A stretch of 64,000 nt of DNA from Selenomonadaceae bacterium (GCA_017549815.1 JAFYNH010000018.1:586-64585), one strand, 5' to 3'; positions 36,651 to 51,158 are shown, counted from the first letter of the stretch. Notes: generated from the letters alone by a model not told the origin. Translations and numbers: made by a program.

Positions 36651-39140
36651 CTAACAGCCACCTTTAATCTTTGCCTCAAGTCGGCGACGTAATTCCTCAT
36701 GAAATTCTTCCGCGCCCGTCTGAAATTTTACTTCGACGCAGATAACGTAAATCGGTATGTTCCAATTTTCCCGCGCCACTTCTTCAGGAATTTTAACGGC
36801 GTCCTTTTCCGTAACGACAATCATCTCCGCCGCGAATGAATCCGCCCGCCGCAAAATATCTTCCATTTCCATAATTGTATAATCGTGGTGGTCGGGATAA
36901 CGCAAGCTCGAAATAATTTCCGCGCCTAAATCTCTTAACGTCCGTTCAAATGACGCGGGATTTCCGATTGCCGAGACAGCCATAACTTTTCTTTTAGAAA
37001 TTACCTCGACGGGAACGCCCTCGCCCGCCAAATCAGTTGCCCAATTCGCAATCGGTATCAGACAACGCGGTCTGTGAATACTCTCTACAATCTGCGCGGA
37101 AGAATTATATCTTGCAACGGTTTCACGAATCAAATCGCAGGAGCCTTCGCGAGCTTGGTCAACCTTCGTCATTAAGCAAACATCTGCGCGGCTTATATGC
37201 GACATAGATTCACGCAAAATCCCACGCGGCAAAAGATAGCCATTGCCGAAAAGGGAAACCGCGTCTATCAGTAAAATATCGAAGTCGCGAATAACTTGCC
37301 AATGTTGATAACCGTCGTCCAGAATCACAACTTCCGCGCCGAATTTTTCTATCGCATATTGTCCAGTAACCGCCCGCCTTGCGCCGATTAATACTGGCAC
37401 GTCCGGCAAATGTTTAGCCAACATATAGGCTTCGTCGCCCGCCTGCGTCGCGTCCATTTTTAAATTTTTCCCGTCCGAGACTATACCGACTTCGCCTTTA
37501 AACTTCGCCCGATAACCGCGATTCAAAATTACGACGCGATAACCCATGTCATGAATTTCTTTAGCCAATCGCTGAGCCGTCGGAGTTTTGCCCGTTCCGC
37601 CGACCGTGATATTTCCTAGACTTATAACAAAGCAATTCAATCGCTCCTTGCCCGAAAAGCCCAGTTCATAGCCGAGCAAGCGCAAATCAACCAACCCACG
37701 ATAAATCAGCGAGCCGAGATATAAAACAAAAATTATCAGCGGCGTAAAGGCTCCGCGAACTTCTTCATCATGAATCAGCTTTAGGAAATATGTTTGAACG
37801 TTTTCAATTTTCTCCGTCGTGCGAAGGCGTCGAGCACTTTCTTTAGCCTCATACTCTGTCAACATTTCCCGCAAAAGTACTGCAGACTTCCTCGACGCGC
37901 CGCGATTTTCATGAACAATTTTAATCGTTTCTTCCTCAAGGCGTTGACGCTCAGCGGGTTCGTCGAAAAGTTTTTTAACCTGCGCGGCAAGCTCATCATC
38001 ATTATTAACCGTGATACAAGCGTTGCGATTTTTAAACAGCGCGTGCAAGTCCTTAAAATTTTCCATGTGGTGTCCAACGATAATCGCCTTGCCGTGCGCC
38101 GCCGGTTCAAGGATATTATGCCCGCCGTGCGAAATCAAACTGCCGCCGACATAAATCACGTTGCCGACGCTGTAAACCTGTCCGAGTTCGCCGATTGTAT
38201 CAAGGATAATAATATCTTCGTTCGCGGGCGGACGTTTTTGTAATTCTGTCCGAGTGCCAACCGTAAAGCCCGCCGCCTTGCATAGCGCGACGACTTCACG
38301 AGTCCGCAAAAGTTCACGCGGAGCAATAATAAGACGCGCCTTCGGGTGATTTTCGCGAATCGCTTTGAACGCCTTAAGTACAAAATTTTCTTCGCCGCGA
38401 TGAGTACTGCCCGCTAAAAAAATTTCCTTAGCGTCCGTCAAGCCCATGTCCGACAGAATTTTTCTGCGCTGTTCGTCAGTCACGTCAGTATAAGTCTGAT
38501 CAAATTTCGTGTTGCCCGTGACAGTCACGAGTTCGGGCGGTGCTCCAAGCTGTTTGACAAAGCCCGCGTCGACCGATGACGCCATTGCGAAAAGTTTCAC
38601 CGTGCCTATCATGTCGCGCAGAATCGAAAACATGTACTTATAACGCTTAACGCTCTTTTCCGAAATGCGCCCGTTTACCATCATGACAGGTACTTGATTT
38701 TCTCGCGCCGCCTTTAAAAAGTTTGGCCAAAGTTCCGTCTCGACGTTCAGAAAAACTCGCGGGAAAATTTTTTTGAACACCGACTCCGATATAAACGGCA
38801 AGTCCAACGGGAAATAAATTATGCTGTCCGCGTCTTTGATGATTCGATTTGCCATTTCGTAGCCGCTTGTCGTCACTACCGAAACTAATATTGGCGACTT
38901 CGGGAACTCGCGGCGGAATTCTTTTATCAGCGGACTTGTCGCCACAATTTCGCCGACCGACGCCGCATGTACCCAGATACAATTTTTTTTCGCCACAGGG
39001 TCGAGTGCGCCCTTCGGGAAAAATCCGAAACTCTGTTTGATTCGCTCCACAAAGCCCCGCTCTCTTATCGAACGAATCATGAACACCGGAATTATTAATA
39101 TCACGACGAGTATCGCCGCAAAGTTGTAAAGTAATTGCAA
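36651..39140 (-). CDS. waaA/lpxK: Bifunctional Kdo transferase (WaaA/KdtA) fused to tetraacyldisaccharide 4'-kinase (LpxK)
   Basis: N-terminal half: WVHAASVGE and GGSL..HGGHN.LEPAA (KdtA). After an internal TM segment comes NITVGGTGKTP (LpxK P-loop) and ILDDGYQH. 829 aa in one frame. Confidence 0.85.
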   Translation of the reverse strand: MQLLYNFAAILVVILIIPVFMIRSIRERGFVERIKQSFGFFPKGALDPVAKKNCIWVHAASVGEIVATSPLIKEFRREFPKSPILVSVVTTSGYEMANRIIKDADSIIYFPLDLPFISESVFKKIFPRVFLNVETELWPNFLKAARENQVPVMMVNGRISEKSVKRYKYMFSILRDMIGTVKLFAMASSVDAGFVKQLGAPPELVTVTGNTKFDQTYTDVTDEQRRKILSDMGLTDAKEIFLAGSTHRGEENFVLKAFKAIRENHPKARLIIAPRELLRTREVVALCKAAGFTVGTRTELQKRPPANEDIIILDTIGELGQVYSVGNVIYVGGSLISHGGHNILEPAAHGKAIIVGHHMENFKDLHALFKNRNACITVNNDDELAAQVKKLFDEPAERQRLEEETIKIVHENRGASRKSAVLLREMLTEYEAKESARRLRTTEKIENVQTYFLKLIHDEEVRGAFTPLIIFVLYLGSLIYRGLVDLRLLGYELGFSGKERLNCFVISLGNITVGGTGKTPTAQRLAKEIHDMGYRVVILNRGYRAKFKGEVGIVSDGKNLKMDATQAGDEAYMLAKHLPDVPVLIGARRAVTGQYAIEKFGAEVVILDDGYQHWQVIRDFDILLIDAVSLFGNGYLLPRGILRESMSHISRADVCLMTKVDQAREGSCDLIRETVARYNSSAQIVESIHRPRCLIPIANWATDLAGEGVPVEVISKRKVMAVSAIGNPASFERTLRDLGAEIISSLRYPDHHDYTIMEMEDILRRADSFAAEMIVVTEKDAVKIPEEVARENWNIPIYVICVEVKFQTGAEEFHEELRRRLEAKIKGGC

Positions 39141-42142: not shown

Positions 42143-42172
42143 AAAAAAAATCTGCCGCGCTAACGACAGATT
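42143..42172 (-). terminator. Rho-independent terminator ending the long dcw/glycan gene array
   Basis: Minus strand: TCTGTCG-ttagcg-CGGCAGA followed by T8. The first 16 nt (AAAAAAAATCTGCCGC on plus) are identical to the element at 40101. Confidence 0.6.
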
Positions 42173-42194
42173 TAAAATTTTTATGCGGGCTATT

Positions 42195-43781
42195 TTAGCT
42201 TTGAATTTCGTCTTTTGGCGCAACGTAACAGGGCGTCGACGTAAAAATAATTTCATCGGTCTGAAACATTGCGTCGAGAGTAAAAAGGAGTTCCGCGTCC
42301 GCGCCGATTTTTTCGTTAAATCTGATTTTATTTTCCATGAGAAATTTACGTTTGAAAATCATCGTCTCTAAAGGCGGAAAAACTTCGTTATTTGTTAAGA
42401 TTCTTAAAAGCGTCAGCTTATCTAATTTCCCATGAAAAATTCCATCTAGGTTCTGAAACGCAGAAATACGCTCCATGCTGAATTTTTTATCGTTAATGCT
42501 AATGTCGCCTTGTTCATTTTCCTTGAGCCAAGATACGGAATTGAAAACATCCCGTTTCCCTTGCATTAAACAAAAATAAGAGATTGTATTTACAAGAATT
42601 CTGTCGTTCCCTTTTAAAAACAAAATAAAATCACCTTGGGCAACATCAAGGGCTTTGTTCCACGCGGCTTCGTTTTGAACTTTGTCATGAAGTTTTATTA
42701 ATGTGATATTGTCGTATTCTTTAGCGACTTGCTTACAAATTTTGCCACTGTCATCAGTCGAAGCGTTGTCTATTATAATAAGCTCAAAAAATTTATAATC
42801 CTGTCCGATTATGGTGTTCAAACTTTCGACGATTGTATCAATGTTATTGTTCACAACAAGCAAAATGGAAAAATAAGGGTGAATTGTAAAGCTCGCTGAT
42901 TGATTATTTAAGTCAAATGGAATTCTTATCCACCTGTCAGAATCGAACGGGGAATTTTCATTTCTTTCAGCCGAAAAATGACGGTAAGTTTCTTTAGTTC
43001 CTAAGATAGAAGACGGAATTGGCACGAAAACTTTTTTATCAGGATTTTGATTAAGCCATGCACCCCACCAACTGAACGTACTGTTGGCAATAATGTTATG
43101 CTTGCAAAAGCTCATCAAATAAATTTCCTCAACGTCTTGTAAATTTTCTCCCTCAACAAATTCCATTGGTACGCCCGCACGCAGATTTTCTTTAACCCAC
43201 TGCAAATCATTTGAGAAGATAAACAGCGTAAGATTTTTGTACTGTTGTTTCAAAATCTCTATGCATTCATAGTAGTAATCAAGCGGCAGAATCGCGAACA
43301 TTGGAAACTTTGAATTCTGAATAAAATCGCCGTGACGAACATGCAAAGATACCGAGCAATCAGCGGCAAGAATTTTTTCTTTCCAATTTTGAGCTATTGA
43401 GCCGAGCGGTTGTTTTAACGTGAATTCTTGACGCAAAATATCAGCAATGTCAGCAAAGTATCTCTCATTTTCCCAGTAACCGCTAACATAAATATTATCT
43501 GGATAATCCAAAACTTCCGGCATAAATTTTGCGTTCATTACATTTTTTTCTATTCCAATTGAAGTGCCTTCACAATTTTTTTTGAGTTGTTTAATTTCTT
43601 CAGGCGAAGCAAAGCTTGATGTAATATTCAATTTATCTAAGACAAATTGTGGAAATTTACCCTCCACATATCCGAGCTTTTCGATTTTAAATTCTGTGTT
43701 AAGTTTATGTGCCAAACGTCGTCCTGCCGCATATTGAAAAAGTTGATTGCCGATACCGCCGCCTATTTTTGAGATTATCAA
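42195..43781 (-). CDS. Fused glycosyltransferase: GT11 (alpha-1,2-fucosyltransferase-like) N-terminal domain + GT2 C-terminal domain
   Basis: GT11 motifs: GGIGNQLFQYAAGRRLA, SLHVRHGDF, NSTFSWWGAWL. Then FSILLVVNNN...ELIIIDNASTDDS (GT2 DxD-type N-terminus). Confidence 0.8.
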   Translation of the reverse strand: MIISKIGGGIGNQLFQYAAGRRLAHKLNTEFKIEKLGYVEGKFPQFVLDKLNITSSFASPEEIKQLKKNCEGTSIGIEKNVMNAKFMPEVLDYPDNIYVSGYWENERYFADIADILRQEFTLKQPLGSIAQNWKEKILAADCSVSLHVRHGDFIQNSKFPMFAILPLDYYYECIEILKQQYKNLTLFIFSNDLQWVKENLRAGVPMEFVEGENLQDVEEIYLMSFCKHNIIANSTFSWWGAWLNQNPDKKVFVPIPSSILGTKETYRHFSAERNENSPFDSDRWIRIPFDLNNQSASFTIHPYFSILLVVNNNIDTIVESLNTIIGQDYKFFELIIIDNASTDDSGKICKQVAKEYDNITLIKLHDKVQNEAAWNKALDVAQGDFILFLKGNDRILVNTISYFCLMQGKRDVFNSVSWLKENEQGDISINDKKFSMERISAFQNLDGIFHGKLDKLTLLRILTNNEVFPPLETMIFKRKFLMENKIRFNEKIGADAELLFTLDAMFQTDEIIFTSTPCYVAPKDEIQS

Positions 43782-45116
43782 TCAAATCATCTCCTGCCAA
43801 ATAATTTTATCTTCAACAGTTATATCCTCGCCGAATTGAACTTCGATAATTTTCATCAATTCATCGGCAATGACAGTGTGTTTGCAACTGACAGGAATTT
43901 TTACGCTGTCACCTGCGCGGACAAATTTTTCTTCGCCGTCGATTATAATCCTGCCCGAACCCGCTATAAAATTCCAAACCTCGTTGCGCCGCTCGTGACT
44001 ATGATATTTCATGCGACTGCCACGATTTAAAGTTACCTTAATCGTCAAGCTTTTTTCGTCGGCGTCAATGATTTTAAACGTTCCCCAAGACTTTTCGGCA
44101 AAGCGAATTTGCTTGTCCAAATTTTCGACGAACGGTTTAATGAAACTCGACGACACTTTGTCAGAAACTAAAATGCCTTCGGGCGAGGCGGCAACAACGG
44201 CGTCTTTTAAGCCCATGCAGATTATCGGAACGTCGGAGCTATTTATAACGTGTAAATTTCTGCAAGTTTTATCCGATTGAACTTGTCCTATAAAATTTGA
44301 TTCGAGGACTTCAGTTAGCGTGTTCCAAGTGCCAATATCTCTCCACTCGCCGACGTAGCGGACGACTTTAATATTTTTCTCATGCTCGACAACGGCATAG
44401 TCAAAACTGATATTCGGCAGGGCGTCATAATTTTCTTTAAGCTCAGCGTGCGAAGAAGTTCCCAAAAGTTTTTGCGCCTTGTCTAAAATATAACTAAGCT
44501 TGAAAGCGAAAACTCCGCCGTTCCATAAGCCGCCCGCGTCGATAAATTTCTGTGCGTCGATAAGATTCGGTTTCTCTTTGAACATTTTGACGCGACTGAT
44601 TTTATCGTTGGTGTCGGGGATAATGTAGCCGTATTTCTCGCTCGGATAAATCGGTTCGATTCCCATTAAGATTAACGGGGCATTGTCGGAAATTTGTTCG
44701 ACAAGCAATAAAAATTGCGCAAAAAAATTATCGTCAACATAAGGATCGACGGGACAAATTATAATATTTTCGTTCGCGCAGATTCTTTTAATGTCGTGAA
44801 GATAAGCCGCCGCCAAAGCTATTGACGGAAAAGTATTTCGGCGACAAGGCTCAACTGATAAATCAAAGTTATCTCCAAGATATTTTTTTAGGAGTGTCAC
44901 CTGTTTTTTAGCCGTAGCGATTGTAACTATTGCTTCCGCGCAGGTTCGGCGAATTTGTTTCAAGACTCGTTGCAACATGCATTCTTCGTCCTTAAAAATT
45001 TTCAGAAATTGTTTTGAGTAAACGTCATTTGACAACGGCCATAATCTTTGCCCGCTCCCGCCCGATAATAAAATTATTTTCAACGGCATTTCTCCTTCCA
45101 AAAGTCGTGAATACAT
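43782..45116 (-). CDS. manC: Mannose-1-phosphate guanylyltransferase (with C-terminal cupin)
   Basis: KIILLSGGSGQRLWPLS nucleotidyltransferase motif and a C-terminal cupin (YHSHERRNEVW). The start could instead be the ATG at 45089. Confidence 0.85.
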   Translation of the reverse strand: MYSRLLEGEMPLKIILLSGGSGQRLWPLSNDVYSKQFLKIFKDEECMLQRVLKQIRRTCAEAIVTIATAKKQVTLLKKYLGDNFDLSVEPCRRNTFPSIALAAAYLHDIKRICANENIIICPVDPYVDDNFFAQFLLLVEQISDNAPLILMGIEPIYPSEKYGYIIPDTNDKISRVKMFKEKPNLIDAQKFIDAGGLWNGGVFAFKLSYILDKAQKLLGTSSHAELKENYDALPNISFDYAVVEHEKNIKVVRYVGEWRDIGTWNTLTEVLESNFIGQVQSDKTCRNLHVINSSDVPIICMGLKDAVVAASPEGILVSDKVSSSFIKPFVENLDKQIRFAEKSWGTFKIIDADEKSLTIKVTLNRGSRMKYHSHERRNEVWNFIAGSGRIIIDGEEKFVRAGDSVKIPVSCKHTVIADELMKIIEVQFGEDITVEDKIIWQEMI

Positions 45117-47206
45117 CTAATAATTTTGTCTAAATGTTCCCTTTGCAAGCCGTGATGACAGCCCACATAAAATCCGTAATGATTAATCCACTCGGCAACA
45201 GGATAATCTTTTTCCACGTCGCCGAAAAATTTTTTATAAATCGGCTGATTTAAAAGCGGCATCATCGGGCGCGTCTCAATATTATTTTTCTCAAGCCAAG
45301 TCGTAAGCTCCCAACGTGTGAACGGCGCATTTTCTTTAACGACAATAGGATACATCATGAACGAATGCTCGACGTGTTCAGGATACTGCGGCAGTTGCAG
45401 ATAATCCTGCACGTCCTGCAAATTTTCTGTAAGATAAGCCGCATTTGCCTTGCGCGTATTCATTATAAAATCCTTATGCTCCAACTGATCTAAACCAATC
45501 GCGCCTTCAAACTCGCCGATTCGGTAGCTGTAGCCGAGCCGAACAAACGTAAAGCGTTTATCCATTTCCGTTTTTGTTCGTAGCGGACAAACTTTTCTGG
45601 GATTCGAGGCTACGCATTCCTCGCAAGTGCAAGCTCTGCCGTGAGCAATCAACGAACGTACAATTTCCATAATCTCGCGGTCATTAGTCGTAACAACTCC
45701 GCCGACGCCCGTCGTTATCGTGTGTGCAACGTAAGTGCTGAAACCCGCAACTTCGCCGAAACTGCCGACGGGTTTATTTTTATAAGTGGCAAAGTGAGCC
45801 TCCGCGCAGTCTTCAATAATTTTAAGATTATATTTTTCGGCAAGCGCAACTATCGGTTCCATGTCGCAAGGTTGTCCGAAAAGATGAACGGGCATTACCG
45901 CCACCGTGTCGCCGTCAATCTTAGACTCAATCTGCGCGGGGTCGATATTATAAGTTTTTGAATCAACGTCGACAAAGACAGGCTCAAGTCCCGCGTGTAA
46001 ACAGGCATTGGACGAGGCAATAAACGTTACGGCGGGGACAAGTACTTTGGAATTCGTTTTCCAATTAAATTTCTCCTTCAAAGCCTCAAGTCCGACATGT
46101 AAAGCACTCGTGCCGCTGTTTAGCGCGATACCATATTTTTGATCGTGAAGTCTGGCAAATTCCTTCTCAAACTTGCGAACAAAGGTACCTTGCGACAACC
46201 TGTTTGCGTCGAGCATTTCATTGACAAGCCGTTTACCTGTGTCGCTTATAAACGCCCAGCCAATACCAATTTTGTTTTTATTTTTAACGTCGATATGTTC
46301 ACGGTAAAAATCAACCGTTAATTTAATGCCGTCTTCCAAACTTGTCTTCGGACGCCAACCAAATTTCAACATGCGCGTTACGTCGGTTAATTTGCGTTTC
46401 ATGCCGGCGGGTTTAGTTAAATCATGCGTAAACGTACCCTTGTAGCCTACAACCTTCGCAATAGTTTGATAATAATCATCAACGGAATAATCTTCGCCGA
46501 GTCCGACGTTCATAAGGTCAGGCAGTTCGTCAAAGCGTTCGACGGCTTGCCAAATGCAATCAGCCAAATCGCCTGCATACATGAATTCCCTGCGAGCCGT
46601 GCCGTCGCCCCAAATCTCAAGCTCCGTTTTGTCGTCGTCGATTGCTTTAATAATCCTTTGAATGACTGCAGGAATCATATGCGCTCTTTCGCCCGTGAAT
46701 TTATCCCAACGTCCGTAAATGTTGCAAGGAATTAGCGTCTTATATTGGAATTCGGGATTTTCTCGCATAATGTAACTGCACATTCTGGCGCAAGAAATTT
46801 TTGCAAGCGCGTAGCCTTCATTGGTCGGTTCGAGTTCTCCCGCTAAAATCATTTCTTCGGTTAAGGGCGTTTCATGATTGCGCGGATACATACAGGAGGA
46901 GCCGAGATTTATAAATTTCTTGACACCTGCGCGGTAAGCTCCGTAGATGACGTTGCGCCCCATGTCGAGATTTTCAACCAGAAATTTAAGCGGCTGTTGC
47001 ATATTTGCCGCTATGCCGCCTACGACGCCCGCCGCATGTATCACCAAATCAGGACGATTCTTTTCCAGATAATCATAAACCGCGTCTTTATCAATCAAAT
47101 CTAATTCCTTATGGCTCGGCGTGAGGAGTTCATATTTTTTGCTAAAAGGCGACTCTAAAACGTTATGACCGACCAAGCCGCTTGAACCCGTAAGCAAAAT
47201 TTTCAT
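45080..47206 (-). CDS. Fusion of a GDP-fucose-synthase-like epimerase/reductase (ColC-like) with a DegT-family sugar 3-dehydratase (ColD/E1-like, His replacing the PLP lysine)
   Basis: N-terminal ~310 aa: ILLTGSSGLVGHN and PTNEGYALAKI (SDR YxxxK). C-terminal ~390 aa: LNSGTSALHVGL and AGFSTYVAHTITTGVGG, where canonical DegT has FS....K..T.GEGG, followed by HGRACTCEEC...VC. Confidence 0.75.
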   Translation of the reverse strand: MKILLTGSSGLVGHNVLESPFSKKYELLTPSHKELDLIDKDAVYDYLEKNRPDLVIHAAGVVGGIAANMQQPLKFLVENLDMGRNVIYGAYRAGVKKFINLGSSCMYPRNHETPLTEEMILAGELEPTNEGYALAKISCARMCSYIMRENPEFQYKTLIPCNIYGRWDKFTGERAHMIPAVIQRIIKAIDDDKTELEIWGDGTARREFMYAGDLADCIWQAVERFDELPDLMNVGLGEDYSVDDYYQTIAKVVGYKGTFTHDLTKPAGMKRKLTDVTRMLKFGWRPKTSLEDGIKLTVDFYREHIDVKNKNKIGIGWAFISDTGKRLVNEMLDANRLSQGTFVRKFEKEFARLHDQKYGIALNSGTSALHVGLEALKEKFNWKTNSKVLVPAVTFIASSNACLHAGLEPVFVDVDSKTYNIDPAQIESKIDGDTVAVMPVHLFGQPCDMEPIVALAEKYNLKIIEDCAEAHFATYKNKPVGSFGEVAGFSTYVAHTITTGVGGVVTTNDREIMEIVRSLIAHGRACTCEECVASNPRKVCPLRTKTEMDKRFTFVRLGYSYRIGEFEGAIGLDQLEHKDFIMNTRKANAAYLTENLQDVQDYLQLPQYPEHVEHSFMMYPIVVKENAPFTRWELTTWLEKNNIETRPMMPLLNQPIYKKFFGDVEKDYPVAEWINHYGFYVGCHHGLQREHLDKIIRCIHDFWKEKCR

Positions 47207-47246: not shown

Positions 47247-48263
47247 TCACCGTCCGTAAAGTTTTAAATCGGCTTGAACCATAATTTTAACCAGCTCGCG
47301 GAAGGAAACTTTGCGTTGCCAACCCAAAATTTTTTGTGCTTTGGAAGGGTCTCCCAAAAGTAAATCGACTTCGGCGGGACGAAAATATTTTGGATTAACA
47401 TCGACCAAAAGTTTTCCCGTTTTCGCGCAGTAACCTTTTTCTTCGACGCCTGTACCTTTCCAAGTAATTTTTATGCCGACCTCTTCAAATGCCGCCTCAA
47501 CAAATTCCCTAACCGTGTGGGTTTCGCCTGTCGCCAAAACAAAATCGTCGGGTTTGTCCTGTTGAAGAATCAACCATTGCCCTTCTACATAGTCTTTCGC
47601 AAAGCCCCAATCGCGTTTAGCGTCCAAATTGCCTAACGATAATTTTTCCTGCAAGCCCGCGCAGATTTTCGCAACCGCGATTGAAATTTTCCGCGTAACA
47701 AAATCTTCGCCGCGTCTCGGAGATTCGTGATTAAATAAAATCCCGTTGCAGGCGAACATACCATAAGCCTCGCGATAATTTACCGTTATCCAATATGAAT
47801 AAAGTTTCGCCGCTCCATACGGACTGCGCGGGTGAAACGGCGTTTTCTCGGATTGCGGCGCGGTTTCGGGCAAGCCTCCGAAAAGTTCAGACGTTGACGC
47901 TTGATAAAACTTCGTGTCAATCTTATTTTGACGAATCGCCTCTAAGATTTTAAGCGTGCCGACGCCCGTCGCCTCCGCTGTGTATTCAGGAACTTCAAAC
48001 GAAATCCCCACATGCGATTGAGCCGCCAAGTTGTAAACTTCGTCAGGCTGTATCTCGCGAATTAAATTGTTTAACCCCGATGAATCCGTCAAGTCGCCAT
48101 AGTGCAAGAAAAAATTTGCGTCGTTGATATGGTCAATTCGTTGTGTGCAAGGCGTGCTATGTCGCCGAATAAGCCCGTGAACTTCGTTGCCCTTCGACAG
48201 CAAAAGCTCCGCCAAATAAGAGCCGTCTTGCCCCGTCACGCCCGTTATCAGTGCTATTTTCAT
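47247..48263 (-). CDS. gmd: GDP-mannose 4,6-dehydratase
   Basis: [28 protein letters not shown] and NHESPRRG. The ATG at 48263 follows AGGAG. Confidence 0.9.
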
Positions 48264-48332
48264 AAATGCTTCTCCTGTTATAACACTTTTTAATCCCAAA
48301 AGCCCGCCGTGTCGTAAAGTTTAATCATAATT

Positions 48333-48599
48333 TTATTTGTCGTCGTAATGACCTTTGCAAGATTTGACCGCAATAATATTTCCGTCTTTGATTTTATAAA
48401 TAAGGCGGTGTTCGTCATTGATTCTGCGCGACCAACCTTCCTCATGCTTAAGCTTTTCGGGTTTACCGATACCTTTAGCCGCGCCATTGCGTTCGATATC
48501 GTTAAGAATAGTGTCTATCTTGTCGAGAATTTTTCTGTCGTTATGCGCCCAATACATGAAGTCATTAAGAGCGTCATTTAAAAATAAAACGTTCGGCAT
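48333..48599 (-). CDS. yoeB: YoeB/Txe-family type II toxin (mRNA interferase)
   Basis: DFMYWAHNDRKILDKIDTILNDIERNG..GIGKPEKLKHEEGWSRRINDEHRLIYKI...CKGHY. The ATG shares one base with the upstream stop (TAATG). Confidence 0.85.
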   Translation of the reverse strand: MPNVLFLNDALNDFMYWAHNDRKILDKIDTILNDIERNGAAKGIGKPEKLKHEEGWSRRINDEHRLIYKIKDGNIIAVKSCKGHYDDK

Positions 48600-48823
48600 T
48601 AAAATTTCCTCAATTCTTCCAACGTAAACATTGTGCCGCAACCTGCCTCAAGTTCCTCTTCAGCGCGGTCGAGCTTGGCAAGAAACTTTGCGTTATTAAT
48701 GCACTGCTCAAATTTTTCTATCCCACGCATTTTGACTTCTTCGATAAAATATTTCCATTCACGCGGCGAGAAAGTAGTATTTTCGTCCGGAATGTCAATT
48801 GGATTTGTTTTATACTTTGCCAT
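48599..48823 (-). CDS. Cognate antitoxin, atypical: only the C-terminal toxin-binding-like tail resembles YefM/Phd
   Basis: 74 aa (MAKYKTNPIDIPDENTTF...LAKLDRAEEELEAGCGTMFTLEELRKF). AAAGGAGGG RBS. Placement and 1-nt overlap with yoeB support the call. The family assignment is weak. Confidence 0.55.
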   Translation of the reverse strand: MAKYKTNPIDIPDENTTFSPREWKYFIEEVKMRGIEKFEQCINNAKFLAKLDRAEEELEAGCGTMFTLEELRKF

Positions 48824-48836
48824 TTTAAACCCTCCT

Positions 48837-51158
48837 TTAAAAATCGGCGAGCGACAAAATTTTTTCACAGAGTTCTGGGAATTCGATACCAGCCGCCCTT
48901 GCCGCGTCGGGCACGAGTGAAGTCTCTGTCATACCGGGGATTGAATTAATCTCTATGACGTAGGGAATATTTTCTTCCGAAAGCATAACGTCAATCCGAG
49001 CGACGCCCGCGCATTTGCAAATTTTGAACGCCGCAATCGCCAACTTTTGAACTTCGGCGGTAACTTCGTCGGGAATCTGCGCGGGTACAATGTGCGTCGA
49101 CAAGCCCTTAGTGTATTTAGTTTTATAATCGTAGCGACCAGTCGTCGTGGTAATTTCAATAACGGGCAGAGCCTCTGCGTCGTCCTCATTACCCATAACC
49201 GCAACCGTCAATTCGCGCCCCTTAATAAATTCCTCAACCAAAATTTCGTCGCCCAAACTGAAAGCGTCTTCAATCGCCTCGTCAAGGTCAAGAGATTTTT
49301 CGACGATACTGACGCCGATACTGGAGCCTTGCGACGACGCCTTGATAACGACGGGCAAGCCGAATTTCTTTTCAATCTCGGCGGCAAGCTCAGTGTTGCG
49401 GTCGACTTCACGATAGACGGCGAATTTAGGCGTAGAAATCTGCGCTGAGTTAAGAAAATGTTTAGTGGCGATTTTATCCATAGTCAACGCGGCGGCAAGC
49501 ACTCCCGAACCCGTGTAAGGAATTTTCATCATTTCGAGCGTACCTTGAATCAGTCCGTCTTCGCCGTATTTTCCGTGAACCGCGTTAAAGACTATGCCGC
49601 AATTTTTTTCGCGAATCGTCTCGGCGAAAGTCTGCGGATTAAGTTCCATAAGTTCGACGTTATAATTTTTAGACTTAAGCGCGTCGGCAATCGCCTTTCC
49701 TGTGCGCCGCGAAACTTCAGCTTCCGTCGAAGTGCCGCCGCATACTACGACAATTTTTTTCTCGTGAAAGTCCTTGAGTAACTCCAAAAGTTCATCTCCC
49801 GTTTTATAAATATCGCCCGCGCCCATTGTGATAACCAAATCGCCCGGTGACAGTTGGTCTTTAATCGCGGCGGCAATGTTTTCACGATTAGGAATGTAGG
49901 AGACGGCTTGATTAGTTGCGCTCAAAACTTCTTGGACAATCGACTCGCCACCGACGCCCGAAATTTTTTCTTCGCCCGCAGAATAAACGTCAGTCAAAAT
50001 CAGATTATCCGCCTCGCGAAATGCCTTGCCGAATTCTTTAAGCAAAAGTTGCGTGCGGCTGTATCTGTGCGGCTGGAAGATACAAAAAATTTTATGGGGC
50101 TTAGTCTCGCGAGCGGCTTTAAGAGTGGCGGCAATTTCAGTCGGGTGATGCGCGTAGTCGTCGACAACCAAAATATTTCTGACGCGCCCTTTTACTTGGA
50201 AACGTCTCTTTGCGCCGTGAAAATTGCTTAAGCCTTCGGCAATCTTATCAAAACTTACGCCGACCTCAAGAGCCGTTGCAATCGTCGCCAGCGCGTTAAG
50301 GACGTTATGCCGCCCGTGAATCGACAAATTTATCTTGCCGAGAGTTTCTCCGCCGCGAACCGCCTCAAAAATAATTCCCTTAGTCGTCGTGCGAATGTTG
50401 CGGGCGGTAAAATCGGCGTCGTTATCAATGGCGTAGGAAATGACTTTACGCTTGATGTCCTTTGCAATGTCGCGCAGATTTTCGTTGTCAAAGCAGAGAA
50501 CTGCAACGCCCGACTCGCGATTGACATTTTCGATAAAAATTTTGAAGGCGGCGCGAATCCTTTCAACAGTGCCGTAATGGTCGAGGTGGTCGTCTTCGAC
50601 GTTGGTAACTACGGCTATCGCGGGCTTGAGCGTCAAAAAGGAGCCGTCACTTTCGTCGGCTTCGGTAACGAGCCAATCGCTTTTGCCTAAAACCGCGCCC
50701 GTGCCCAAGTCGGTTGATTCGCCGCCGATAATGATTGTCGGGTCGACGTCCGCGCTGTGCAAGACGTAACCAATCATTGAAGTCGTAGTAGTTTTGCCGT
50801 GCGAGCCGGAGACCGCGATACCTTTGCGCGAATTCAGCAGGTAAGAGTTAATGTCGGAGCGGTGGAGCTTAGGAATTTTAAATTTGCTAGCCGCAACGAC
50901 TTCTGGGTTATCGGCGGGAATAGCTGACGAGCAAACGATAGCCTCAACAGGATTGCCCTTTTCGTCAAGGATATTTTTAGCCTTATGTCCGACGAAAATT
51001 CTCGCGCCAAGATTTCTGAGCATGTCGAGCGTAGGAGAATCCTTGCTATCGGAGCCGCTGATTTCGCAACCGAGTTCAATCAAAATTTTAGCGAGCGCAC
51101 TCATACCCACGCCGCCAATTCCTATAAAGTGATATTTTTTCAAGCCGTCGAGTTTCAA
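48837..51158 (-). CDS. murC/ddl: Bifunctional UDP-N-acetylmuramate--L-alanine ligase / D-alanine--D-alanine ligase fusion
   Basis: HFIGIGGVGMSALA and GSHGKTTTTSM (MurC). From KIVVVCGGTSTEAEVS onward the sequence is a Ddl ATP-grasp domain ending EINSIPGMTETSLVP. 773 aa. Confidence 0.9.
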   Translation of the reverse strand: MKLDGLKKYHFIGIGGVGMSALAKILIELGCEISGSDSKDSPTLDMLRNLGARIFVGHKAKNILDEKGNPVEAIVCSSAIPADNPEVVAASKFKIPKLHRSDINSYLLNSRKGIAVSGSHGKTTTTSMIGYVLHSADVDPTIIIGGESTDLGTGAVLGKSDWLVTEADESDGSFLTLKPAIAVVTNVEDDHLDHYGTVERIRAAFKIFIENVNRESGVAVLCFDNENLRDIAKDIKRKVISYAIDNDADFTARNIRTTTKGIIFEAVRGGETLGKINLSIHGRHNVLNALATIATALEVGVSFDKIAEGLSNFHGAKRRFQVKGRVRNILVVDDYAHHPTEIAATLKAARETKPHKIFCIFQPHRYSRTQLLLKEFGKAFREADNLILTDVYSAGEEKISGVGGESIVQEVLSATNQAVSYIPNRENIAAAIKDQLSPGDLVITMGAGDIYKTGDELLELLKDFHEKKIVVVCGGTSTEAEVSRRTGKAIADALKSKNYNVELMELNPQTFAETIREKNCGIVFNAVHGKYGEDGLIQGTLEMMKIPYTGSGVLAAALTMDKIATKHFLNSAQISTPKFAVYREVDRNTELAAEIEKKFGLPVVIKASSQGSSIGVSIVEKSLDLDEAIEDAFSLGDEILVEEFIKGRELTVAVMGNEDDAEALPVIEITTTTGRYDYKTKYTKGLSTHIVPAQIPDEVTAEVQKLAIAAFKICKCAGVARIDVMLSEENIPYVIEINSIPGMTETSLVPDAARAAGIEFPELCEKILSLADF

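Follow-up and report, generated by a model that had tools for sequence, protein, structure and literature searches.

A 64,000-nucleotide window of DNA from a Selenomonadaceae bacterium (GCA_017549815.1, JAFYNH010000018.1:586-64585; the window is the whole stretch analysed, and positions are counted from its first letter) encodes a protein in which a domain of the GDP-L-colitose synthase (ColC) type is fused to a sugar 3-dehydratase domain of the DegT family. The fused protein most likely forms GDP-L-colitose from the product of GDP-mannose 4,6-dehydratase (Gmd), carrying out two steps on one chain. The chances seem about even that an Fe-S cluster, homologous to the one in the 3-dehydrases E1 and SpnQ, is bound by four cysteines in a loop of the dehydratase domain. 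The open reading frame (ORF) and its parts lie as follows.

45080..47206, minus strand: fused ORF of 708 amino acids, a ColC-type short-chain dehydrogenase/reductase (SDR) domain plus a His-type DegT 3-dehydratase domain
46292..47206, minus strand: N-domain, residues 1-305, assigned as a GDP-L-colitose synthase (ColC) orthologue from identity, tree and catalytic residues
46274..46291, minus strand: short linker between the domains, about 6-8 residues (roughly HIDVKNKN, with IDVKNKN read in frame), derived from what had been a stop codon, a spacer between the genes and a start codon
45083..46273, minus strand: C-domain, residues 312-708, DegT/AAT-fold sugar 3-dehydratase (PF01041, 333 bits), predicted to use pyridoxamine 5'-phosphate (PMP)

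The fused gene has an AGGAGG ribosome-binding site 8 nt ahead of its ATG, and Pfam places the Epimerase domain at residues 3-235 and DegT_DnrJ_EryC1 at residues 325-699. An artefact of assembly or frameshift was ruled out, the same frame being present in at least 10 independent contigs of metagenome-assembled genomes (MAGs) at 81-89% identity. Among NCBIfam models the highest-scoring are GDP-L-fucose synthase, with 296 bits under a cutoff of 500, and RfbH, with 261 bits under a cutoff of 423, so that the protein fits neither equivalog. An AlphaFold model has a mean predicted local distance difference test score (pLDDT) of 80, falling below 50 at linker residues 307-309, and a predicted template modelling score of 0.53, at which the arrangement of one domain relative to the other is unreliable. 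The model is uninformative on metal geometry, and the Foldseek matches only repeat the sequence result. Neither a fusion of ColC to a dehydratase nor a GDP-specific dehydratase bearing a Cys cluster turned up in a search of the literature, in line with an earlier sequence-only reading of this DNA, which knew of neither.

Judged from its sequence, the N-domain is a true ColC orthologue, on the following evidence. Its identity to E. coli O55 ColC is 55.7% along the full 305 residues, as against 37.8% to E. coli Fcl (GDP-L-fucose synthase), the two E. coli proteins being 39% identical to each other. In a tree of 76 partner proteins of the dehydratases, ColC and the partners of the type seen here form one clade with 100% support and a stem branch of 0.7, and the other partners cluster with E. 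coli Fcl. Scores on the Fcl model separate the same two groups, at 457-482 bits for the Fcl-type partners versus 296-332 bits for the ColC-type; the N-domain, at 296 bits on equivalog NF047922, lies outside the E. coli Fcl clade. Lastly, the catalytic residues are in place: Ser103, Cys105, Tyr132, Lys136 and His176 match Ser107, Cys109, Tyr136, Lys140 and His179 of GMER, the Cys/His pair being the one that serves epimerisation in GMER. The Gly-rich NADPH-binding motif reads GSSGLVG, 32 positions are common to the N-domain and ColC and differ from both Fcl types, and Foldseek matches the domain to GMER with a template modelling score of 0.89. Its assignment as an ordinary Fcl was rejected on the Fcl-model score, the identity to ColC and the placement in the tree. 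The ColC-like character claimed from the sequence at the outset is thus borne out.

The dehydratase domain carries two features that bear on its chemistry.

45722..45724, minus strand: codon of His495, which replaces the Schiff-base Lys (from alignments)
45587..45643, minus strand: Cys loop HGRACTCEECVASNPRKVC, residues 522-540, putative Fe-S site (Cys526, Cys528, Cys531 and Cys540; from alignment and conservation)

His495 lies within GFSTYVAHTITTGVGGV (residues 488-504, nt 45695-45745) and in HMMER alignments pairs with His188 of ColD (2gms), His220 of E1 (3bcx) and Lys186 of GDP-perosamine synthase. A histidine rather than a lysine therefore stands at the pyridoxal 5'-phosphate position in alignment with both ColD and E1, as the sequence-only reading had it. 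Searched against solved structures, the C-domain matches GDP-perosamine synthase (5e-57), E1 (3bcx, 2.8e-56, the best full-length match) and ColD (4e-46); Foldseek likewise matches it to GDP-perosamine synthase and E1. Its best Lys-type relative is thus GDP-perosamine synthase, which acts on the same substrate as predicted here. In a comparison of 18 sequences about 150 positions of the C-domain are invariant, among them His495, Tyr492, Glu469 and those of the Cys loop.

The relatives of the C-domain were sought among 1.84 billion representative proteins, and the best 150 matches (P0122-P0271) were analysed. A C-x-C-x2-C-x(6-9)-C loop is present in 34 of them, 104 have no loop Cys, and 12 are Lys-type; most of the 104 carry an acidic HGRDSIYLSIDDDD loop instead. 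Two trees, a quick one of 156 rows and a careful one of 68 rows, are in agreement. In the careful tree the His-type enzymes form one group against the Lys-type (support 100/98), within which ColD and E1 share a 21-row clade (100/99) and the C-domain lies opposite them (96/91), in a clade of its own (100/100) beside a large Cys-free clade. Both trees reject the C-domain as an orthologue of either ColD or E1. On this phylogenetic evidence the C-domain is a member of a separate, uncharacterised His-type clade and not a ColD orthologue. The earlier description of the protein as ColC and ColD on one polypeptide therefore holds for the predicted function but not for descent, the C-domain and ColD belonging to different large clades.

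The sister clade (loci L079-L084) is a very large Cys-free His-type DegT family, itself uncharacterised and bearing the acidic loop; some of its members adjoin gmd, and in some (P0126, P0127, P0133, P0144, P0145) the chain also contains a fused GT2, GT1, methyltransferase or SDR domain. Architectures similar to the present one, with an SDR domain joined to a His-type DegT domain, are seen in other uncharacterised clades (P0133, P0144, P0145, P0205).

The Cys loop aligns to the E1 segment WGRDCYCAPGCDNTC, and ColD has no Cys in this loop. The E1 cluster motif is reportedly C-X57-C-X1-C-X7-C, as Agnihotri et al. are said to have described in 2004, and we take its ligands to be Cys193, Cys251, Cys253 and Cys261, an assignment that fits the numbering of 3bcx. 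In the multiple alignment, Cys251 and Cys253 of E1 fall exactly on Cys526 and Cys528, and Cys261 on Cys540, so that a Cys-rich segment does lie at the E1 Fe-S site where ColD has none, as the sequence-only reading had it. Cys531 and Cys467 are extra invariant cysteines. His495 and all four loop cysteines are invariant in each of 73 complete members of the clade, taken from named genomes and 54-85% identical, so the cysteines are indeed conserved among homologues. The four loop cysteines are the conserved set, because positions 467/468 lack a Cys in at least 15 of the 34 representatives with a Cys loop. A Cys at the E1-193 position is not diagnostic, because it is also present in ColD and in the Cys-free clade.

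The nearest relatives of E1 carry C-x-C-x2-C-x8-9-C, as here, and the Yersinia E1 has a 5-residue deletion within its Cys loop. In the trees, Cys-loop lineages lie at the base of both halves of the His-type group. On these basal positions and the loop shared with the nearest relatives of E1, the simplest account is that the Cys motif is probably ancestral to the His-type dehydratases, with several later losses, that in ColD among them. The ‘hybrid type’ of enzyme that had been suggested is thus not what the comparison points to; the motif looks instead like an ancestral state. A search of the PDB with the Cys-loop member P0137 found no solved structure of the class besides E1.

The genes around the fusion fit a GDP-mannose-derived pathway, and their arrangement is as follows.

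47247..48299, minus strand: gmd, GDP-mannose 4,6-dehydratase (TIGR01472, 551 bits, cutoff 415); likely true start at ATG 48263
43782..45089, minus strand: manC-type mannose-1-phosphate guanylyltransferase (NTP_transferase and MannoseP_isomer domains)
42195..43781, minus strand: GT11::GT2 fused glycosyltransferase (PF01531 and PF00535)
42148..42173, minus strand: intrinsic terminator-like hairpin, 11 bp stem plus T-run, closing the four-gene operon

Both neighbours named in the sequence-only reading were found, gmd 40 nt upstream of the fused gene and manC directly downstream, its ATG lying inside the end of the fused gene with a 10-nt overlap. With tight translational coupling and a terminator after the glycosyltransferase gene, gmd, the fused gene, manC and GT11::GT2 make up a single operon, in which no thiamine diphosphate (ThDP) enzyme, methyltransferase or extra SDR gene was found. 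The GT11 half of the last protein is 32% identical to WbgN, the GT11 protein of the E. coli O55 colitose cluster, and on this resemblance is a candidate colitosyltransferase. The host genome (2.77 Mb, 94% complete), that of an uncultured rumen bacterium placed by its nearest relatives with Selenomonadaceae/Quinella, has a single gmd, a single Fcl/ColC-like domain and a single His-type DegT, and it encodes a flavodoxin. Searches of it found no Fer2 domain and no E3/AscD-type reductase, with one marginal NAD_binding_1 match, and no E3-type reductase gene was found in the neighbourhoods inspected. The same genome contains no Fcl besides the ColC domain, so that GDP-fucose would be possible in the host only if the ColC domain were promiscuous.

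Other features of this region concern its neighbours. The GT11::GT2 gene has a G+C content of 36.7% versus 45% for the genome, and its product is only 37-59% identical to the counterparts in relatives whose fused gene is more than 80% identical; it seems, on these comparisons, to have been exchanged faster than the sugar-synthesis genes. A WaaA::LpxK fusion (36651-39140) and a MurC::Ddl fusion (48837-51158) lie in the same 15 kb, and because of them the lineage seems prone to fusing consecutive envelope-biosynthesis genes. A YoeB-like toxin gene with a small antitoxin ORF (48333-48868) is placed between murC::ddl and gmd, at the junction of cell-wall and glycan operons.

The same grouping of genes recurs widely. 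A gmd gene occurs at 70 and a manC gene at 56 of the 84 related loci, these genes mostly adjoining and in the same orientation, and the dehydratase gene almost always touches a gene of the Fcl/ColC family, in either order. These associations, like the nearest Lys-type relative being GDP-perosamine synthase, are consistent with action of the C-domain on the Gmd product. Among the carriers are Selenomonas ruminis, Centipeda and Pelosinus, Lachnospiraceae, Oscillospiraceae and other Clostridia, Treponema bryantii and Sphaerochaetaceae, and an unfused homologue from Acidaminococcaceae occurs on at least 1000 contigs in the order gmd, fcl-like, dehydratase, manC, PMI. In most members of the clade beyond Selenomonadaceae the partner is of the Fcl type, not the ColC type. 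Of the family's 61 genomes 4 have the locus, and both of the other two species of the genus lack it, a patchy presence as expected for a variable surface-glycan module. Some Acidaminococcaceae and one Selenomonadales MAG have split transketolase-like or E1_dh/Transket_pyr ThDP genes and extra SDR genes beside the gmd/dehydratase module (L001 4222-5989, L004 872-2646), which suggests C-branched 3,6-dideoxy sugars in those genomes.

A single fused ORF of ColC and dehydratase is confined to rumen Selenomonadaceae/Quinella MAGs. Only the fusion is rare, because as an unfused pair the two genes are common among anaerobes of the gut and rumen; the pair is present in the cultured Selenomonas ruminis mPRGC5, Centipeda periodontii DSM 2778 and Treponema bryantii NK4A124. 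In S. ruminis the point corresponding to the linker is occupied by a TGA, a 15-nt spacer holding a ribosome-binding site, and an ATG, and the fusion, by this comparison, arose from genes lying side by side. In a second set of fusions (L012 7974-10136, L013 7950-10145; P0024-P0027) the same dehydratase is linked to an Fcl-type domain; this set is independent, because it is nested inside the Fcl clade. The two independent fusions, of ColC and of Fcl to the dehydratase, argue that the joined domains catalyse consecutive steps. In P0027 the SDR catalytic Tyr is replaced by Phe and the catalytic Ser by Cys, and its reductase half may, from these substitutions, be inactive. Six close relatives of the present locus (L005 7926-8933, L006, L007, L010, L014, L019) have a separate Fcl-type gene between gmd and the fusion, scoring 482 bits on the Fcl model.

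The predicted substrate, product and mechanism are as follows. ManC would make GDP-mannose, from which Gmd would make GDP-4-keto-6-deoxy-D-mannose. The C-domain would bind this product as a PMP ketimine, and His495 would take the C4' proton so that the 3-OH leaves, giving GDP-4-keto-3,6-dideoxy-D-mannose. If the loop holds a cluster, the mannoseen intermediate would be reduced in two one-electron transfers from flavodoxin or ferredoxin, and not hydrolysed with glutamate-dependent regeneration of PMP; flavodoxin or ferredoxin is proposed as the donor because the genome has no E3. The N-domain would then epimerise C5 and reduce C4 with NAD(P)H to yield GDP-L-colitose (3,6-dideoxy-L-xylo-hexose), and the GT11 half of GT11::GT2 would transfer colitose to a surface glycan. 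Fusion would hand the keto intermediate straight to the ColC domain and would keep that domain off the undehydrated Gmd product.

The known systems resemble parts of this scheme. In the O-antigen cluster of E. coli O55:H7 CB9615, colC precedes colD with a 4-nt overlap, the order of the domains in the fusion, and a GT11 gene is present. ColC of E. coli O55:H7 and of Yersinia pseudotuberculosis shares with the N-domain the SDR triad, the Cys/His acid-base pair and a gene directly before that of a 3-dehydratase, but the known ColC proteins are free-standing. With ColD/WbdK (2gms, 3b8x) and with the C3-dehydratases of C. jejuni HS:5 and HS:11, the C-domain has in common the DegT/AAT fold, the His for Lys, the predicted Gmd-product substrate and the cluster setting of gmd, manC, colC and GT11. 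In ColD, however, Ser187-His188 stands in place of Ala494-His495 and a Phe in place of Tyr492, and the loop is without the four cysteines. Because of these differences in residues and loop, the mechanism of the C-domain is probably not glutamate-dependent. E1 (RfbH/DdhC/AscC, 3bcx) has the equivalents of His495, Tyr492 and Ala494 (His220, Tyr217 and Ala219) and three of its four cluster cysteines in the same loop. It differs in its CDP-glucose or TDP-glucose setting, as opposed to GDP-mannose here, in its clade, in Phe345 (Met here), in a motif consisting of C-x-C-x7-C plus a remote Cys, and in having a dedicated E3 partner (Fer2-FAD-NAD), no gene for which was found here; the present protein is, besides, fused to the downstream reductase. 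E1 and SpnQ hold a [2Fe-2S] cluster through four cysteines and ColD holds none; E1 requires E3, and SpnQ uses general ferredoxin/flavodoxin systems (PMC8987622). The present locus resembles that of SpnQ in encoding no dedicated reductase. Bifunctional and trifunctional nucleotide-sugar enzymes born of gene fusion, such as the RmlC/D fusion and the UDP-rhamnose synthases, also carry out consecutive deoxysugar steps in one chain (PMC8987622), but they join SDR or cupin domains, rather than a PMP enzyme and an SDR.

Several findings weigh against this account. The manC-type protein scores 212 bits on TIGR01479, under the cutoff of 373, and the locus offers no wzx, wzy or acceptor context by which to identify the recipient glycan. 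The C-domain has no more than 29.6% identity with ColD and about 31% with E1, lies in the clade of neither, and its own clade is without any characterised member. The region of the Cys loop (residues 523-562) has pLDDT below 50 in the cofactor-free AlphaFold model. The spacing C-x-C-x2-C-x8-C is not that of E1, and the position of E1 Cys193 is Ala468, so that of the E1-like motif claimed in the sequence-only reading the site stands, but the spacing and the fourth ligand do not. A four-Cys loop so spaced is typical of Zn sites as well, and this one could equally bind Zn. These last points bear on a reading that would leave the product as GDP-L-colitose but the loop as a structural Zn site or empty, with a ColD-like course in which the enamine is hydrolysed and PMP regenerated with L-glutamate, no external electrons being needed. 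Such a course is rather unlikely. It is indeed how every GDP-specific 3-dehydratase that has been characterised works (those of E. coli, Yersinia and C. jejuni HS:5 and HS:11), each being ColD-type and glutamate-dependent, and the set including the C. jejuni enzymes is 62-67% identical to ColD (PMC10440746). The lack of an E3-type reductase in the genome or inspected neighbourhoods would also be explained, as would the alanine at the fourth-ligand position, and the Cys-free sister clade shows that the scaffold can work without cysteines. Against this, Cys526, Cys528 and Cys540 are positionally homologous to E1 ligands, within a shared GR-x-C-x-C, and the nearest relatives of E1 bear the same four-Cys loop. 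Ala494 corresponds to E1 Ala219, where ColD has Ser187, a residue tied to the course of the ColD reaction. The clade is restricted to anaerobes, which fits an oxygen-sensitive cofactor, and SpnQ is an Fe-S 3-dehydrase with no need of a dedicated E3.

The product could also be another GDP-3,6-dideoxyhexose or a branched derivative, formed by a reduction of different stereochemistry or by diversion of the 4-keto-3,6-dideoxy intermediate. The Fcl-type partners of most dehydratases outside Selenomonadaceae would allow this, and the two-subunit ThDP genes and extra SDRs beside the module in some relatives hint at C-branched sugars. It is improbable here, however, given a partner that groups as a ColC orthologue (56% identity) with all the epimerase/reductase residues, an operon with no ThDP enzyme, methyltransferase or extra SDR, and a sole transferase that belongs, like one in the colitose cluster of E. 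coli O55, to the GT11 type. Least probable, to the point of being scarcely credible, is a silent or regulatory DegT domain attached to a GDP-L-fucose synthase, with GT11 acting as a fucosyltransferase. The genome does lack another Fcl, GT11 is best known for alpha-1,2-fucosyltransferases, and the N-domain still reaches 296 bits on the Fcl model; but the C-domain is strongly conserved, with its roughly 150 invariant positions in 18 sequences, the N-domain groups with ColC and not Fcl, and close relatives keep an Fcl beside the fusion, so that the two are not redundant.

The two-step formation of GDP-L-colitose can be placed in a wider proposal, which is possible but put forward tentatively: that the C-domain is a GDP-specific Fe-S 3-dehydrase fed by general flavodoxin/ferredoxin; that the Cys-loop form is ancestral to all His-type enzymes, the glutamate chemistry of ColD and the HGRDSIYLSIDDDD clade representing repeated later losses; that colitose is so made in many gut and rumen anaerobes, among them Selenomonadaceae, Acidaminococcaceae, Lachnospiraceae, Oscillospiraceae and Treponema; and that fusion to ColC channels a labile keto intermediate.

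Deoxygenation of sugars at C-3 is a textbook case of two mechanisms, that of E1 with E3 and that of ColD, on one scaffold. If the present reading is true, an enzyme of the GDP-mannose pathway with an E1-type Cys loop links both mechanisms and shows which came first, and the fused protein is a natural two-step catalyst for GDP-colitose. Proteins of the clade are now annotated merely as ‘aminotransferase’, so that inference of pathways from annotation misses them. Colitose is a rare, immunodominant surface sugar whose other known sources are E. coli O55/O111, Yersinia and Vibrio cholerae O139, and the finding predicts that common anaerobes of the rumen and gut bear it on their surface.

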